NCBI GenBank assembly: GCA_002792535.1 | Contig: PFOM01000004.1 | Span: 2,551 to 66,550, forward strand | Length of the DNA: 64,000 nt | Reading direction: 5' to 3' | DNA from: Candidatus Peregrinibacteria bacterium CG_4_10_14_0_2_um_filter_38_24 | GTDB taxonomy: Bacteria; Patescibacteriota; Gracilibacteria; UBA1369; LOWO2-01-FULL-3 | Translations under genes and position numbers: made by a program | The notes under the pieces: model-generated | The model's database searches: none | What the model was told of the DNA's origin: nothing | Seen by the model: only the letters and a program-made list of their open reading frames with translations | Part shown: one piece after another, positions 24,608 through 57,006 of the stretch | How the letters are laid out: each line of letters starts with the position of its first letter | Numbering within the stretch: the stretch's first letter is position 1

Positions 24608-25327
24608 ATGCAACATTTTTTTATAAATCAGGAACTTAAGGAGGGGAAGATCATGATTACAGATCCGGATCTTCTTCATCAGATGAAAACTGTGATGAGA
24701 TTTGAGGCGGGGGATAAGTGTGTTTTTTTGGACGGGAAAGGTGCGAAGGCGAATGGAGTTTTCGATGTTGTGGCGAAAAAGGAGGCGGTTATTGTTTTGA
24801 CAGAAGTGACTCACTCTGCTGTAGATGGCCGAAAAGTGAATCTATACATCGCTTTGTCGAAAAAACCTGCAACGCTAGAATTGATAGTGCAAAAGGTTAC
24901 TGAGATTGGAGTGACGGATATTTTTCCTATTGTTACAAATAGATGTCAGGTGAAGGAAATGAGAAATGTTCCAAGATTTCTTTCTATCATGAGCGAGGCG
25001 GCCGAGCAAAGTGAGAGGTGCGTTTTGCCTGTATTGCATGAGGTTATTTCGTGGAAAGATTTTTTGAAGGATTTTCCGAAAGGTGAAGTTTTGGTTGGGG
25101 ATGCGAGGCAACATGACGTGAAGTTAGGGGAATATTTAAGGGAGAGGGCCGACTTCGTCGGCGTGGTAGGCATGGTCGGTGTTGTGATTGGACCGGAAGG
25201 AGGGCTTACAGATGAGGAAATCTCTGAGGCAAAATCCAAAGGTGCAAAAATCTTTTTGTTAGGCGAGAATGTATTAAGAATGGAAACTGCGGCAATTTCT
25301 GCTATTTCGATGGTGATGTTCGAGTAA
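24608..25327 (+). CDS. rsmE: 16S rRNA m3U1498 methyltransferase
   Basis: HQMKTVMR, QKVTEIGV, EAAEQSER, IGPEGG, LGENVLRMETAAI. Confidence 0.95.
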   Translation: MQHFFINQELKEGKIMITDPDLLHQMKTVMRFEAGDKCVFLDGKGAKANGVFDVVAKKEAVIVLTEVTHSAVDGRKVNLYIALSKKPATLELIVQKVTEIGVTDIFPIVTNRCQVKEMRNVPRFLSIMSEAAEQSERCVLPVLHEVISWKDFLKDFPKGEVLVGDARQHDVKLGEYLRERADFVGVVGMVGVVIGPEGGLTDEEISEAKSKGAKIFLLGENVLRMETAAISAISMVMFE

Positions 25328-25476
25328 GGAATTGTGGAATTAATATGTCCATTCGCAATAGGTTAAAGCAATTTACCAAATCTAACATGTACGATTTAGC
25401 AAATTTGAGTCGGTCATGACCGACTCAAAAGCTTTAACAAGCTATTGCTCACGAACATATCAATTCTACAATTCCT
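25327..25476. repeat. Structured palindromic element, family 1, copy A
   Basis: 24-bp imperfect outer IR; hairpin with TCTAACATGTACGA (25381-25394); perfect 26-bp palindrome 25404-25429. Confidence 0.85.
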
Positions 25477-25631
25477 GATCAGTCAAAAAGCACGATAAGC
25501 TATTACTCACGAACATATGTGTTTTCCCCTCCCTATTTCCCCGCATAAAATTAGCTTGAACTCATCACCATAAGTTGTTAATATTCCACGCGAACTTTTC
25601 TATATATTTAATATTTTTTAATTTATTTAAG

Positions 25632-27734
25632 ATGTCTATGTCCACATATCTTTTTGCTTCGATATTCGGCATTAGTCTTCTTTCTCTTGTTGTTGCAATT
25701 TTGTTTGCGCGCCATGTCCTTGCACAGGACAAAGGTACGCCAAAAATGCAGGAAATTGCTGAGGCTATTAGAGAGGGAGCTATGGCGTTTTTGAGAAGAC
25801 AGTACGTTACAATTGGTATTCTATCACTTGTAATGGTTGTCGTCATTCTTGGTGCATATTCTTTAAGTGGTGATTTCAGCTATGGTTGGCATACTGCTTT
25901 AGCATTTGTCCTTGGAGCGGCTTGTTCTGCTCTTTCAGGATTTTTGGGGATGTACATGAGTGTAAAAGCGAATCTTCGAACTGCTGCTGCGGCTCAACAC
26001 AGCGTAAATAAAGCTCTTAAGATGGCGATTCGTGGTGGAGCCTTCTCAGGTATTTTGGTAGTTGCACTTTCTCTTCTTGGAGTTGGTGGACTTTTCGTAG
26101 CTTATGGCGGAGTCGCAAATCCTACAGAAGTTCCTCTTTTATTGGTTGGTTTCGGATTTGGAGCTTCTTTCGTTGCTCTATTCGCACAACTTGGAGGTGG
26201 AATTTATACAAAAGCTGCCGATGTTGGAGCTGATCTAGTTGGAAAAGTAGAAGCTGGAATTCCTGAAGATGATCCTAGAAATCCTGCGGTTATTGCTGAT
26301 TTAGTTGGGGATAACGTTGGAGATTGTGCAGGTCGTGGAGCGGATCTTTTCGAATCTACAGCTGCTGAAAATATTGGAGCGATGATTCTTGGAATCGCGC
26401 TTTTCCCAGTATTTGGATTTAAAGGAATTATTTTTCCTCTTGTAGCTCGTGCATTTGGACTTATCGCTTCTATCGTTGGTGTTATGGTGGTTTCAATTAA
26501 AGAATCACAAGATCCAATGAAAGGATTGAACAAAGGTTATTTTGTTACAACAATTTTATCTATCGTTGGATTTGGAATCTCAAGCTATTTGCTTTTGACT
26601 CCATCAGCTGAATATCTTTTAGCTAATCCTACATCTGCAAATGCATGGATGTGGTTCTTCGGAGCCGGACTTGTTGGTATCGTTGCCAGCGTTGCGTTTG
26701 TTTACATTACTCAATATTACACAGAATATAGATATCGCCCTGTAAAAGAAATCGCAGAGGCTTCAGAAACAGGAGGTGCTACAAATATCATCAGTGGTTT
26801 CGCTGTTGGTCTTGAAAGCACAGGTCTTCCCGTACTTGTTATTTCTGCATCTTTGATTGCATCTTATTATCTTGGAAATGCTACCGGAATTATACATGGT
26901 GGACTTTATGGAACTGCTGTTGCGACTATGGGAATGCTTGCGACTGCGGCTTATATCCTTGCAATGGATAACTTTGGGCCTATCACAGACAATGCTGGAG
27001 GAATCGTTGAAATGTCAAAAGCTCCTGAAGAAATCAGAAAGAGAACAGATCGTCTTGATGCTGTTGGAAACACAACAAAAGCTCTTACAAAGGGTTATGC
27101 TGTTGGATCTGCGGCTCTTGCGGCATTCTTGCTTTTCTCTGCTTTCCTAGAAGCGGCAAAACTTACAAGTATCGATCTTGCTAAACCAATCGTTTTCGTT
27201 GGAGGACTGATTGGAGCTATGTTGATTTTTGTTTTCTCTTCATTCGCAATTCGTGCTGTTTCTCGTGCGGCAGGTTACATCATCAATGATGTTCGTGCTC
27301 AGTTTAAAGAGAAACTTGGAATTATGGCTGGAACTGAGAAACCTGATTATGCGAGAAGTGTTGATATTTGTACAAAAGGTGCGCTTAAAGAAATGGTTCT
27401 TCCAGGACTTACAGCCGTTGCTGTTCCGACTATCGTTGGATTTACTCTTGGAGTTGAAGCGGTTGGAGCGACTCTTATGGTTGGAACTATTGCCGGTGTT
27501 GTTTTGGCTCTTACTCTTAACAATGGAGGAGGTGCTTGGGACAACGCTAAGAAATATATTGAAATGGGAGCGCACGGTGGAAAAGGCTCATTTGCTCATA
27601 AAGCAGCGGTTGTTGGAGATACTGTTGGTGATCCGTTCAAGGATACAGCAGGTCCTTCACTACACGTTTTGATCAAACTACTTTCTACACTTACACTTGT
27701 TCTTGCACCACTTTTCTTGTTGGTACAGAAATAA
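25632..27734 (+). CDS. hppA: Membrane H+-translocating pyrophosphatase, K+-independent signature
   Basis: GGGIYTKAADVGADLVGKVE, PEDDPRNPAVIADLVGDNVGD, DAVGNTTKA (Lys variant), GGAWDNAKK, GDTVGDPFKDTAGP. Confidence 0.96.
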   Translation: MSMSTYLFASIFGISLLSLVVAILFARHVLAQDKGTPKMQEIAEAIREGAMAFLRRQYVTIGILSLVMVVVILGAYSLSGDFSYGWHTALAFVLGAACSALSGFLGMYMSVKANLRTAAAAQHSVNKALKMAIRGGAFSGILVVALSLLGVGGLFVAYGGVANPTEVPLLLVGFGFGASFVALFAQLGGGIYTKAADVGADLVGKVEAGIPEDDPRNPAVIADLVGDNVGDCAGRGADLFESTAAENIGAMILGIALFPVFGFKGIIFPLVARAFGLIASIVGVMVVSIKESQDPMKGLNKGYFVTTILSIVGFGISSYLLLTPSAEYLLANPTSANAWMWFFGAGLVGIVASVAFVYITQYYTEYRYRPVKEIAEASETGGATNIISGFAVGLESTGLPVLVISASLIASYYLGNATGIIHGGLYGTAVATMGMLATAAYILAMDNFGPITDNAGGIVEMSKAPEEIRKRTDRLDAVGNTTKALTKGYAVGSAALAAFLLFSAFLEAAKLTSIDLAKPIVFVGGLIGAMLIFVFSSFAIRAVSRAAGYIINDVRAQFKEKLGIMAGTEKPDYARSVDICTKGALKEMVLPGLTAVAVPTIVGFTLGVEAVGATLMVGTIAGVVLALTLNNGGGAWDNAKKYIEMGAHGGKGSFAHKAAVVGDTVGDPFKDTAGPSLHVLIKLLSTLTLVLAPLFLLVQK

Positions 27735-29675: not shown

Positions 29676-29729
29676 GATTGACTAATTTCCTAAATTGTTA
29701 TATAAGGACGTCTAATTTATATAATAATT

Positions 29730-30065
29730 ATGAGTGAGCAGGTGGTGCCAGCACAGAAGGTTAAGTTTCATAGTGTGGGATATGTCCTTAGGCATGTTGT
29801 TTATTCCAAACTTAAGAAAATCGGATTTTCTCCTGTGCAATTTTTGAAAAGTGGAAAAGGATTTGGTGGAGGAATGGTTAAAAATGGTCTTGATACTCCG
29901 GATTCTGTGAGGGATTATATGTTGTTTTTTTCTAAATATCCTGTTCTTCAGAGGGCTTTTTTGGCGGCGTTTATGGCTTGTTTGACGGTGCCTTTTTTGG
30001 TGGCGTTAAAGGATGGACTTTTGAAGATTGTGAAAAAAGATAAGCGTCAAGATGGGGAAATGTAG
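29730..30065 (+). CDS. Hypothetical protein with one hydrophobic segment
   Basis: ORF in operon-like position with normal codon usage. Confidence 0.65.
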   Translation: MSEQVVPAQKVKFHSVGYVLRHVVYSKLKKIGFSPVQFLKSGKGFGGGMVKNGLDTPDSVRDYMLFFSKYPVLQRAFLAAFMACLTVPFLVALKDGLLKIVKKDKRQDGEM

Positions 30066-34480: not shown

Positions 34481-34777
34481 ATGGCGAATATTCAACCTTT
34501 GGGAAATCATGTTGTGGTGGAGGCGATAAAGGAAGAGCTGACTTCTTCTTCTGGTATTATAATTCCGGATAGTGTTTCGAAAGAGAAGCCTATGAAGGGA
34601 AAAGTTTTGGCTGTCGGGCCTGGGAAAATGGCAAATGATGGAAAGACTGTGATGGCGCCTGATCTTGAGGTCGGAGACGTGGTTCTTTTTTCAAAATACG
34701 GACCTACGGAAGTGAAACTTGAAGGAAAGGAAGTTTTGATTTTGTCTGTCGATGACATCTTTGCGAAATTGAAATAA
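34481..34777 (+). CDS. groES: Co-chaperonin GroES
   Basis: IQPLG, SGIIIPD, GKVLAVGPG, VGDVVLFSKYG. Confidence 0.97.
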   Translation: MANIQPLGNHVVVEAIKEELTSSSGIIIPDSVSKEKPMKGKVLAVGPGKMANDGKTVMAPDLEVGDVVLFSKYGPTEVKLEGKEVLILSVDDIFAKLK

Positions 34778-34783
34778 TACGTT

Positions 34784-34922
34784 GAGCCATTTGGATATTT
34801 GTTTTTCCTAAGTCGTGTCGCATTTTGCAATTCTAACGTGTACGAATTGCAAAAAGTCTCGTCATCGTGATGACTCGACTGGCGACACAAGGACTTACTT
34901 AAAACAAATATCCAAATGGCTC
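34784..34922. repeat. Structured palindromic element, family 1, copy B (between groES and groEL)
   Basis: Perfect 22-bp outer IR; TTTTGCAATT-CTAACGTGTACG-AATTGCAAAA; second hairpin centred on CATCGTGATG. Confidence 0.9.
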
Positions 34923-34928
34923 TCATAA

Positions 34929-36590
<1,662 letters not shown>

Positions 36591-47903: not shown

Positions 47904-48494
47904 ATGAATCTCAAAAATTATGTTATTTCTGAGGCGAAAAATGCTATTGCGATTTTGAAGTTTGATAAGGTTATGATGGCTCATGTTGCAGGGAAATCCG
48001 ATGCGACCAGAAACGGTATTATTATTCTTGTTGTTCCGGCTGTTTTTAATATTATTTTTGGATCGCTTAGTTTTCCTTCTGGATTTTCATCGATTTTTTC
48101 AAGGTTTCTTGTTTGGCCGCTTTTGATTCCGGTGTTTGCTTTTGTTGGAATGATTTTTGGGGTTAGCTATGTGGCTAGAAAATATTTTCATGGAGTAGGA
48201 AATGATATTGGATTTTTCAGAGTTTTATCTTATGCAGGGGTTATTTCTTGGCTCTCTATTCCCGTTGCGGTTCTTTCAATGATTGGAGTTTTTGACATTT
48301 TTAATCTGCTTAGCATTATTAATTTGGCGGTGGTGATTATGGTTTTTGCGGTTTGTTATCATTTACTTTTGGATTACCACAAAGTTCATAAAGATGATGC
48401 TGTAAAGATAATTGCGATCGGTGTTGTCGGATATTTTGTGTTTCAGTGGATTTTGGGGAAAATTTTGGTGGGTAGCGTGTATAGATATTTTTAA
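47904..48494 (+). CDS. Yip1-like membrane protein
   Basis: Five TM segments with F.G.G..IGFFRVLSYA. Confidence 0.7.
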   Translation: MNLKNYVISEAKNAIAILKFDKVMMAHVAGKSDATRNGIIILVVPAVFNIIFGSLSFPSGFSSIFSRFLVWPLLIPVFAFVGMIFGVSYVARKYFHGVGNDIGFFRVLSYAGVISWLSIPVAVLSMIGVFDIFNLLSIINLAVVIMVFAVCYHLLLDYHKVHKDDAVKIIAIGVVGYFVFQWILGKILVGSVYRYF

Positions 48495-48664
48495 AGATAG
48501 AAAAGGCAAAATTAGAGTTATATCTCTTCGCAATTTGTTTGTGCAGTTTGGCATATCTAACATGTACGATATGCCAAAAATTCAGGCATCATGATGCCTG
48601 AATTGGCACAAAAATAAATTGTTCATAGACATAACTCTAATTTTGCCTTTTCTACCTTTAAAAA
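48488..48664. repeat. Structured palindromic element, family 1, copy C
   Basis: 38-bp outer IR (two A-C mismatches); TTTGGCATAT-CTAACATGTACG-ATATGCCAAA; perfect palindrome AATTCAGGCATCATGATGCCTGAATT. Confidence 0.9.
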
Positions 48665-55468: not shown

Positions 55469-56900
55469 ACTTAAAATTAGTGAGGCGGCAAAAGGGCTTA
55501 GAGAAGGTAAATTCTCTTGTGAGGATTTGATGAAAGATTGTTTGGCGGAGATTTCTCTCAAGAATAAAGATTTGAATGCGTATATTTTTGTTGATGAGAA
55601 AATGGCTTTAGCTGAGGCAAAAGAGATGGATAAGAGGTTGGAAAAAGGTGAAGATTTGGGGCATTTGATGGGAATTCCTTGTGCGATGAAAGATATTTTT
55701 AATACGAAGGGAGTGAGGACTACCTGTTGTTCTCCTATGCTAAAAGATTTTGTTCCTCCATACGATGCGGAGGTCGTGAAACGGCTTAGGAATGCGGGAA
55801 TGGTGATGATTGGAAAGACGAATATGGATGAGTTCGCGTGTGGTTCAAGTACTGAACATTCATGTTTTGGTGTAACGAAAAATCCATATGATGTTTCGTG
55901 TGTGGCAGGAGGGTCGTCTGGGGGAAGTGCGGCGGCGGTGGCTTCCGATATGTGTATTTATGCTACAGGAACTGATACAGGTGGGTCGATTCGTCAGCCT
56001 GCTTCACTATGCGGTGTTGTGGGAATGAAAGTGACTTATGGTCGTGTTTCAAGAAGTGGCGTGACTGCATTGGCTTCTAGCTGGGATACTATTGGTCATT
56101 TTGCGAAAAGTGTTGAAGATGCTGCAATTGTTTTAAATGTAACTGCAGGAAAAGATGCAAAGGATTCTACGACTCCGGATATAGAGGTTCCGGATTATAC
56201 TTCGTTTTTGGGAAAAGGTATAAAAGGGCTTAAGATAGGGATTCCTAAGGAATATTTTGGAGAGGGAATTGACAGCGAAGTTTCTGATAAAGTAATGGAA
56301 GTTGTGGTGAAGTTGGAAAAAGAAGGTGCGAAAGTGGTGGAAGTTTCTTTGCCAATGACTAAATACGCGATTGCTGCTTATTATGTTTCAATGCCGGCTG
56401 AACTTTCTGCGAATTTGGAAAGGTACGATGGAATAAGATATGGGAAAAAACCTGTAGGTAGCGCTCCGAAGGATTTGGTTGATTATTATTTTGCGGCTCG
56501 TGGAGAGGGATTTGGAAGTGAGATTAAACGTAGAATAATGATTGGAACTTATGTTTTGTCGGCTGGATATTATGATGCGTATTATAAGAAAGCTCAGAAA
56601 GTTCGTACGTTAATTATTCAGGATTTTAATAAAGCTTTTGAACAGGTTGATGTTTTGATTGCTCCTGTAAGTCCTTTCCCCGCATTTAAGATAGGGGAGT
56701 TGGCTGATGATCCACTTGCGATGTATATGGCGGATTCATTGACGCTTCCTGTTAGTGCGGCTGGTGTTCCTTCGCTTGCAGTTCCGGCGGGAATGTCGAA
56801 AAGTGGCTTGCCAATAGGCTTGCAAATCATCGCGCCGCAGTTTGAGGAGGGCAGGTGTTTTACGGTTGGGGATGTGGTTGAGAAAGTTCAAGCAGAATAA
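55455..56900 (+). CDS. gatA: Asp/Glu-tRNA amidotransferase subunit A
   Basis: GKTNMDEFACGSS, GGSSGGSAAAV, GTDTGGSIRQPA, RYDGIRYG, EIKRRIMIGTYVLSAGYYDAYY. Confidence 0.97.
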   Translation: MQLNKLKISEAAKGLREGKFSCEDLMKDCLAEISLKNKDLNAYIFVDEKMALAEAKEMDKRLEKGEDLGHLMGIPCAMKDIFNTKGVRTTCCSPMLKDFVPPYDAEVVKRLRNAGMVMIGKTNMDEFACGSSTEHSCFGVTKNPYDVSCVAGGSSGGSAAAVASDMCIYATGTDTGGSIRQPASLCGVVGMKVTYGRVSRSGVTALASSWDTIGHFAKSVEDAAIVLNVTAGKDAKDSTTPDIEVPDYTSFLGKGIKGLKIGIPKEYFGEGIDSEVSDKVMEVVVKLEKEGAKVVEVSLPMTKYAIAAYYVSMPAELSANLERYDGIRYGKKPVGSAPKDLVDYYFAARGEGFGSEIKRRIMIGTYVLSAGYYDAYYKKAQKVRTLIIQDFNKAFEQVDVLIAPVSPFPAFKIGELADDPLAMYMADSLTLPVSAAGVPSLAVPAGMSKSGLPIGLQIIAPQFEEGRCFTVGDVVEKVQAE

Positions 56901-57006
56901 AGGAAATGCCAAAAACATTCCCGAGAGCTTAGACTTCTTGTTTCGTGAACAAGCTTTTGTCTAAAAAAACGTAATGCACTCTCGGAAATATTTTTGGCAT
57001 TTCCTT
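56900..57006. repeat. Long intergenic palindromic element between convergent gatA and TrmB genes
   Basis: 28-bp outer IR with two C-A mismatches; inner hairpin CTTGTT-TCGTG-AACAAG. Confidence 0.8.

Follow-up and report, generated by a model that had tools for sequence, protein, structure and literature searches.

Three intergenic regions of a 64,000-nt stretch of DNA from Candidatus Peregrinibacteria bacterium CG_4_10_14_0_2_um_filter_38_24 carry copies of what is probably a new mobile DNA element. The element appears to be non-autonomous, non-coding and defined by its structure, to be confined to one order of Microgenomates-type bacteria of the candidate phyla radiation (CPR), and to act through single-stranded DNA (ssDNA) at the replication fork. 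The whole stretch, referred to as the window, corresponds to positions 2551-66550 of contig C35 in the source genome G000 (1.10 Mb in 43 contigs; C numbers denote contigs and other G numbers denote relatives). What defines the element is a T-shaped three-way junction together with its unpaired bases (loop 1 TAACATGTAC, loop 2 CATG, an AA bulge and an internal loop), the stems being free to vary. It is best read as working like REPINs and IS200/IS605 derivatives, although the features by which members of those groups are recognised are missing from it.

Mobile elements are usually said to be almost absent from CPR bacteria, and the Ch65 genome paper says so for that genome (PMC7143001). In contrast, two hairpin families are present in the 1.1-Mb CPR genome studied here, the first with at least 15 copies and the second with 17.

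Three copies of one fold

The 14-mer TCTAACRTGTACGA occurs exactly three times in the window, at 25381, 34832 and 48556, always on the + strand. By chance 0.32 occurrences would be expected, and three were reached in 1 of 100 shuffles. An initial annotation of the window, made from the letters alone, had proposed that the three regions share one architecture. Both the motif count and the folding of each region confirmed this: in all three, a long outer stem leads through an internal loop to an inner stem that bears two hairpins. RNA folding gave z-scores against shuffles of -9.5, -13.5 and -12.6 for copies 1, 2 and 3. When folded as DNA, the two strands are about equally stable (-32.2/-37.8, -46.4/-46.9 and -47.6/-47.2 kcal/mol).

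Copy 1 is a full palindromic element in the rsmE-hppA spacer (25329-25475, +; 132 bits with the covariance model described below), with loop 1 TAACATGTAC at 25383-25392 and loop 2 CATG at 25415-25418, both on the + strand. Copy 2 lies in the groES-groEL spacer (34784-34922, +; 101.5 bits) and has loop 1 TAACGTGTAC at 34834-34843 (+) and loop 2 CGTG at 34866-34869 (+). Copy 3 follows a 196-aa open reading frame (ORF) and spans 48488-48664 (+; 142.6 bits), with its core palindrome at 48498-48654, loop 1 at 48558-48567 (+) and loop 2 CATG at 48590-48593 (+).

Family size and range

The exact motif TCTAACRTGTACGA is found seven times in G000. A covariance model built from these seven copies recovered 12 strong copies and 1 weaker one in the same genome. 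Scanning G000 with the 10-mer TAACATGTAC added 2 four-way variants, 1 degenerate copy and 1 coincidence inside a gene. The total for G000 is 15 intact copies, that is, 13 model matches plus the 2 four-way variants found by motif. Model matches were obtained in 18 of 61 genomes (60 relatives plus G000), including all 5 congeners. Carriers were found among the family's other genomes (14 of 36) and, one genome apiece, in three further families of the order. When 151 genomes were sampled across the class, all 5 matches fell within the element's own order, and about 135 genomes of other orders gave no match (E<=1e-5, with stricter filters). The covariance-model scan that the initial annotation had suggested thus revealed a family well beyond the window.

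Copies are about 130-160 bp long, each of them an almost perfect long inverted repeat with two short hairpins at its centre, so that one strand can fold into the T shape. Congeners hold from 2 (G005) to 11 (G002) distinct copies once reverse-strand duplicates are removed, while G036 gave 11 model matches (with reverse-strand duplicates kept in) and its congener G010 none. Copy numbers in draft genomes are probably underestimates because assemblies tend to break at these palindromes: contig C81 of G003 ends right after groES, and X3 contigs break at window positions 34750/34790.

Conserved loops and coupled changes in the stems

A model-based alignment of the 51 best copies has standard pairs in 95.3% of its 2792 pair cells, against 54.2% after shuffling and about 40% when the partners are slid. 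Changes on both sides were seen at 57 of 57 stem pairs. In the same alignment each position of loop 1 TAACATGTAC is kept in 47-51 of the 51 copies and the AA bulge in 49-50; loop 2 is CATG, often with a purine directly 5' of it, and the internal loop is moderately conserved. The view that the fold and the loops are the conserved feature, first put forward in the initial annotation, is borne out by this covariation and by the near-invariance of the loops. Two of its details had to be adjusted. A fixed loop exists as claimed, but its truly invariant part is TAACATGTAC, and the closing pairs of loop 1 covary; the arms of hairpin 1, described as paired in every copy, are imperfect in the rsmE copy.

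The stems are 15-34 bp long, A+T-rich and branched. Their base is the most variable part, the apex is conserved and the termini are not, and the copies share little sequence outside the loops. Comparing 20 pairs of closely related copies, we counted 192 stem pairs with changes in both partners and 50 with a change in one partner only, while 91 of 644 unpaired positions differ. Stems thus evolve faster than loops, and they do so in a coupled fashion. Between orthologous copies of G000 and G003 we found 10 double changes and no single one. Such coupling is more readily explained if one arm is copied from the other in an extruded DNA hairpin than by slow compensatory selection.

Occupancy and relocation

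Orthologous sites differ in their occupancy among close relatives. The groES-groEL site is filled in G000, filled by an inverted copy in G002 and G005, and empty (19-nt spacer) in G001 and G004. The core of the groES copy is homologous among G000, G002 and G005 and lies in the opposite sense in the latter two. The rsmE-hppA site holds one subfamily in G000 and another, inverted, in G001, and is empty in G004. Both spacers had been singled out in the initial annotation as places to look for empty sites, and empty forms were indeed found at both. In addition, the C3:5476 site is empty in the 4 of 4 congeners having the gene, and the C41:8705 site is empty in G002.

Whole units also recur at unrelated sites. 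The copy at locus L076 of G001 is 91% identical over 139 nt to those at L018 of G000 and L099 of G003, and two G030 copies are 89% identical, in both cases at unrelated sites. The C41 copy of G000 is 87% identical to the copy behind groEL in G002, and G011 holds 7 near-identical copies. In the relocated units homology stops at the palindrome ends, and there is no direct repeat or target-site duplication.

Some sites retain traces of earlier sequence. New copies stand beside leftover 3' arms of older ones at the C37:25829 site in G002 and in the window, where a 3'-half remnant just downstream of copy 1 (25486-25521, +) resembles the 3' arm of the copy at G000:C37:25829. Moreover, in two filled/empty pairs the end of the 3' arm pre-exists in the empty site (the last 11 nt at the C41 site, the last 6-8 nt at the C3 site). 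Three origins could account for this pre-existing sequence: insertion guided by microhomology, copying of the target flank in inverted orientation, or the footprint of a deletion.

These traces bear on an enzyme-free account, in which the hairpin stalls replication, template switching of nascent strands at short homologies copies it elsewhere, and the arms grow by inverted copying of the flank. The missing transposase and target-site duplication, the pre-existing arm ends, the new copies beside leftover 3' arms and a second, unrelated hairpin family at the same kinds of site all agree with it. Nevertheless, we consider it unlikely. It offers no reason for the AA bulge and both loops to be conserved across families of the order; the informative sites are only two, of which the "empty" C41 site may itself be a deletion footprint; and the groES and rsmE sites lack microhomology.

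Orientation and replication

For a family-wide analysis 78 copies were collected from 15 genomes. In 66 of them the flanks (element excluded) are G-rich on the strand bearing TAACATGTAC, and the same holds for 40 of the 44 copies with |skew| >= 0.1. Grouped by site, 43 of 54 groups are all positive, 7 all negative and 4 mixed (43/50, binomial p = 2e-7, kin not being fully independent). All 12 three-way copies of G000 (±6 kb), 7 of 7 in G011 and 6 of 6 in G036 obey the rule. The bias is kept in 9 of the 12 copies that are antisense to their flanking genes. Genes for tRNA, distributed 18 to 15 with respect to the G-rich strand, have no such bias.

As a usual rule, the G-rich strand is the leading strand and thus the lagging-strand template. 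The 16S gene lies on the G-rich strand, which fits this equation and hence the lagging-strand template as the strand that carries the loops. In the complete genome of G011 (998 kb), GC skew has the same sign in 20 of 20 sampling windows (10 kb each, 50-kb spacing), ranging from -0.18 to -0.45, and it reaches ±0.25 in G000 contigs. The skew of a single sign along the whole G011 chromosome matches the one-strand G/C disparity published for the Microgenomates order UBA1400, which that report interprets as one-direction replication (PMC7143001).

So strong a preference for the G-rich strand would also agree with an ssDNA signal kept by the host, gained and lost slowly. In chromosomes that seemingly replicate one way, the lagging-strand template might for instance need sites for priming or assembly. 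The one-strand asymmetry of the entire G011 chromosome, a trait that the UBA1400 report describes for the same group (PMC7143001), would suit such a signal, as would the sites that stay filled across genera and families and the failure to find a transposase. We regard this explanation as very improbable. A host signal sits poorly with the patchy distribution (14 of 36 other family genomes; G036 a carrier and its congener G010 none), with a copy number between 2 and 11 among congeners, with orthologous sites that are empty in close relatives, and with a few copies in the "wrong" orientation. Furthermore, near-identical copies point to recent spread.

DNA or RNA

The evidence points to DNA rather than RNA as the level at which the element acts. 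A selected RNA helix is expected to favour G·U pairs. Among the 159 of 2767 cells that are not Watson-Crick, we counted 58 A·C, 46 C·T and 31 G·T, so that G·T makes up 1.1% of cells and is less frequent than A·C. Pairing that is Watson-Crick only, with G·T scarcer than A·C, speaks for DNA and not for RNA.

Orientation relative to genes leads in the same direction. With robust ORF calls, copies between co-directional genes are sense in 10 cases and antisense in 12, while 21 copies lie between convergent genes and 2 between divergent ones. Looser ORF calls gave 17 sense, 20 antisense, 32 convergent and 3 divergent. As an example, the copy at G000:C37:37290 is antisense, between ftsA and a 5'-3' exonuclease gene. 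The initial annotation had noted that all copies run in the same orientation as the upstream gene, which is right for the window and wrong for the family. The distance from element to stop codon has a median of 9 nt over 81 gene ends, with frequent overlap. As the stems abut or overlap stop codons, there is no space for an independent promoter.

A structured RNA, transcribed with the upstream gene or alone, was one of the two candidates of the initial annotation. It might serve as a 3'-untranslated-region stabiliser, an RNase III site, a terminator or a small RNA, with loops that bind a protein or each other. The placement at gene 3' ends, the very stable folds and the strong covariation would all suit it. 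So would the CATG loops, in which the variation is almost exclusively A to G: CGTG stands in both loops of the groES copy, compatible with a wobble-tolerant loop-loop contact. However, antisense copies are as frequent as sense ones, orthologous copies are inverted relative to groES and rsmE, and G·U pairs are rarer than A·C. Double changes outnumber single ones 192 to 50 between close relatives, no promoter would fit, and the strand bias is not shared by tRNA genes. The A/G states of loop 1 and loop 2 are not significantly linked (2/3/3/28, Fisher p = 0.13, in the 36 of 78 copies that were parsed), and a "kissing" contact between the two CATG-containing loops was rejected on this ground. An intrinsic terminator was likewise rejected, since the stems are long, A+T-rich and branched and are not followed by a regular T-run (by inspection, the boundaries being cut short in about half of the rows). 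In Rfam the window had no match at the gathering score, and E-value thresholds gave only generic long-hairpin miRNA precursor models far below their cut-offs, in agreement with the initial annotation, which had matched the element to no familiar riboswitch or ribozyme. An RNA reading is thus possible but disfavoured, and we think it improbable. The other candidate, an ssDNA element, is favoured by the variable occupancy of orthologous sites, by the relocation of units without target-site duplication and by the bias to the G-rich strand.

Search for a partner enzyme

The idea of an HUH-type partner, also raised in the initial annotation, gained no support from any partner gene. Y1_Tnp (PF01797) is present in 14 of 61 genomes and in only 3 of the 18 carriers, being absent from G001-G005, G011, G036 and G037. 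Relaxase, Rep_trans and TnpB were detected in 0 of 5 carriers by profile searches confined to these families and to binned genomes. Y2_Tnp also gave 0 of 5, but with its control search silent as well this zero carries no weight. RVT_1 was not found in G000, G011, G036, G037 and several other carriers, and a retron or another hairpin DNA dependent on reverse transcriptase was rejected for that reason. Tyrosine recombinases (Phage_integrase), Xer-like or Xer-sized, number about 2 per genome in carriers and element-free genomes alike, and so do not discriminate between them.

G000 itself has an IS200-like Y1 transposase gene (C11:53326-53685, -) that contains a single in-frame TGA. The gene lies close to the end of its contig, between typical short G+C-rich hairpins. 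Among the genomes searched, no other member of the genus has such an IS200-like element.

An autonomous relative was not seen on any viral, plasmid, phage or metagenome contig among the matches listed. A pattern scan of IMG/VR (94 stretches) gave no model match among the 80 loci listed. In a metagenome scan the hairpin was present in 1 of the 80 loci listed (L280, a groES-type copy), and plasmid and phage collections gave no blastn match.

Proposed mechanism

We hypothesize that the loop-bearing strand folds when it becomes single-stranded at the replication fork, the G-rich strand being the presumed lagging-strand template. A putative protein would read the loops and the bulge, and the entire hairpin unit, either copied or moved, would reach new intergenic positions immediately downstream of stop codons without duplicating the target. 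Templated correction from arm to arm in the extruded hairpin would then keep the arms complementary, and we propose this as the reason why both sides of the stems change together. Inserted copies would be tolerated, and may be useful as hairpins that work in either orientation at gene 3' ends. The folding of ssDNA at the fork, the reader protein, the copy-or-move transposition and the homogenisation of the arms by templated repair are the parts that we infer.

Several observations weigh against a mobile ssDNA element of this kind. First, no enzyme for it was found: Y1_Tnp is present in just 3 of 18 carriers; RVT_1 is absent from G000, G011, G036 and G037; Relaxase, Rep_trans and TnpB are in none of the 5 carriers searched; and about 2 Xer-like recombinases occur everywhere. 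The end hairpins of the IS200-like element of G000 are unrelated to the loops of the three-way element. Second, some sites are occupied across genera and families (G001 and G056; G000 and G025), so copies can persist long, and this fits long retention as well as mobility. Third, the groES copy is unchanged in contigs of three other groundwater samples (X4, X5 and X6), with no empty or flipped allele, a comparison made on contigs only, which drop rare variants. Fourth, the variation of the CATG loops, almost only A/G, would equally suit wobble pairing in RNA. Fifth, the orientation rule is broken by 12 of 78 copies, among them the groES copy of G002 and G005 and all 3 four-way copies of G000, and which strand serves as the lagging-strand template is, for genomes of such unusual skew, an assumption taken from the general rule. 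Finally, the G011 copies sit in the centre of an unrelated inverted-repeat MITE (miniature inverted-repeat transposable element), which is possibly the real vehicle there.

This MITE of G011:C1 measures 134 nt and has 20-bp terminal inverted repeats, with 25 repeat matches at <=3 mismatches (for example at 83868-84001, 133701-133834, 120562-120695, 679865-679998 and 652304-652437). In several of its copies the central 18 nt are replaced by the three-way element.

It is tempting to go further and propose that the element stands for a class of bacterial mobile DNA not recognised before, in which the folded single strand is known by its shape (a T-shaped three-way junction with three or four fixed unpaired motifs) and not by its end sequences. 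The direction of replication would orient it, in chromosomes that appear to replicate one way. It would be moved by a novel enzyme family, or without any enzyme by template switching, with self-extending arms that copy target flanks inverted. We find this broader proposal doubtful, although worth stating.

If a mobile ssDNA element is indeed the right reading, it would add a structure-defined type, with conserved loops and free stems, to the short list of ssDNA mobile elements. It would also provide a natural marker of replication direction in a lineage with an unexplained one-strand G/C asymmetry, and it points to a putative protein that reads TAACATGTAC in a hairpin loop. Furthermore, palindrome dynamics at the DNA level could then yield perfect covariation, which calls for caution in RNA-motif pipelines that treat covariation as proof of RNA.

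Comparison with known elements

REP sequences and REPINs are among the closest known systems. Compensatory changes in their hairpins are common (PMC3116915), and the RAYT (TnpA-REP) transposase reads single-stranded hairpins through a loop, a bulge and a short motif (PMC8266576). The three-way element resembles REPINs and REP-BIMEs in these two respects, and also in being short, non-coding, palindromic and extragenic, in its predicted folding as ssDNA and in its long vertical persistence. Unlike REPINs, it combines two dissimilar hairpins: hairpin 2 has another loop and other arms than hairpin 1 and is no inverted copy of it. The stem feet bear no conserved GTAG-type tag, conservation lies in the loops and not in the arms, and a Y1 gene is lacking in most carriers. 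With RAYT (PF01797) in only 3 of 18 carriers, no paired inverted REP and no conserved tetranucleotide tag, we rejected membership of the REP/REPIN group.

In the IS200/IS605 family, as in the element described here, orientation is tied to the replication strand. Like these elements and the palindrome-associated transposable elements (PATEs), the three-way element makes no target duplication, has no shared terminal inverted repeats and depends on hairpins. It differs in that 15 of 18 carriers lack TnpA (Y1) and 0 of 5 have TnpB, and in that it is one long hairpin where IS200/IS605 has two subterminal ones. A PATE derived from IS200/IS605 was rejected given that the end hairpins of the resident IS200-like element in G000 are unrelated and TnpB is missing from the 5 carriers searched.

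Integron attC sites are found directly behind ORFs and are recognised as a folded single strand with extrahelical bases, their sequence varying while the structure is kept; conserved boxes lie at the base of the stem. The three-way element shares the placement behind ORFs and the folded shape with variable sequence. Unlike attC, its stem base varies and its apex is conserved, and the genes that recur beside it are housekeeping genes only, in normal synteny (FtsA, 5'-3' exonuclease, MurB, NusA, a Xer-like recombinase, an ABC ATPase and T4SS-type pilins). An integron attC was therefore rejected, also considering that carriers and non-carriers have the same number of Xer-sized recombinases, about 2 per genome in a search with the general Phage_integrase model.

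MITEs such as Correia, ERIC and RPE are similar in size, intergenic location, hairpin potential and patchy presence. The three-way element, however, has neither a target-site duplication nor a shared terminal repeat, and little common sequence outside its loops; the true inverted-repeat MITE that coexists with it in G011 looks quite different. A DDE-type MITE was rejected because the outer stems differ between copies and the relocated units have no target-site duplication.

Parvovirus genomes end in T-shaped hairpins with a long stem and two small arms, where a protein reads the arm tip and "flip/flop" orientations occur, and the single-strand origins of rolling-circle plasmids combine conserved loops with variable stems. 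The likeness is one of analogy only, in the T shape, the conserved loops and the two orientations. Those structures belong to autonomous replicons with a Rep gene, while the elements described here are internal chromosomal insertions. For rolling-circle origins and oriT, the comparison gave Relaxase and Rep_trans in 0 of 5 carriers and no match in plasmid or phage DNA. A literature search on the loop motif and on palindromic repeats of Microgenomates found no description of the family, the matches to the loop motif being unrelated primers and constructs.

Genes and other repeats around the copies

In the window the three copies stand at or near stop codons, as the initial annotation had stated. 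The gene for an RsmE-type RNA methyltransferase (24608-25327, +; PF04452, 7e-38) ends with a stop codon that abuts copy 1, and the groES stop codon (34481-34777, +; PF00166) lies 6 nt ahead of copy 2. The outermost stem of copy 3 contains the last codons and the stop codon of the 196-aa ORF (47904-48494, +). The RsmE-type and GroES assignments of the upstream genes held; the third gene had been called Yip1-like, and this was not confirmed at E<=1e-5, the ORF having no Pfam hit. Downstream of copies 1, 2 and 3 are genes for an H+-PPase, GroEL (34956-36590, +; PF00118) and an unnamed 621-aa ORF, respectively.

The second, unrelated family of long hairpins is also located just behind stop codons. 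Its outer stems are locus-specific and its apex is conserved, from near GAGCTTAAGCTTCTTTT to near AACGCAATGCGCTC. A pattern search placed one copy in the window (56900-57006, +) and the family at 16 other sites of G000, for example C3:42191, C23:4394 and C14:9647 and 9795. In G000, 12 of its 17 copies lie on the G-rich strand and the other 5 on the C-rich one. At a site where G000 has a three-way copy, G002 and G003 carry a member of this second family instead.

A third kind of hairpin element is possibly represented at G000:C6:24345-24419 (+), behind a gene, by a 21-bp stem with a 30-nt loop that matches the model weakly (30 bits) and has none of the loop motifs. After several element sites, ahead of the next gene, we also observed a conserved A+T-rich motif of about 35 nt, itself a small palindrome (G000:C37 ~25990-26030 and C11 ~29715-29750; G002 L082 and L381; G003 L383), which may be a promoter/terminator module or another small repeat.
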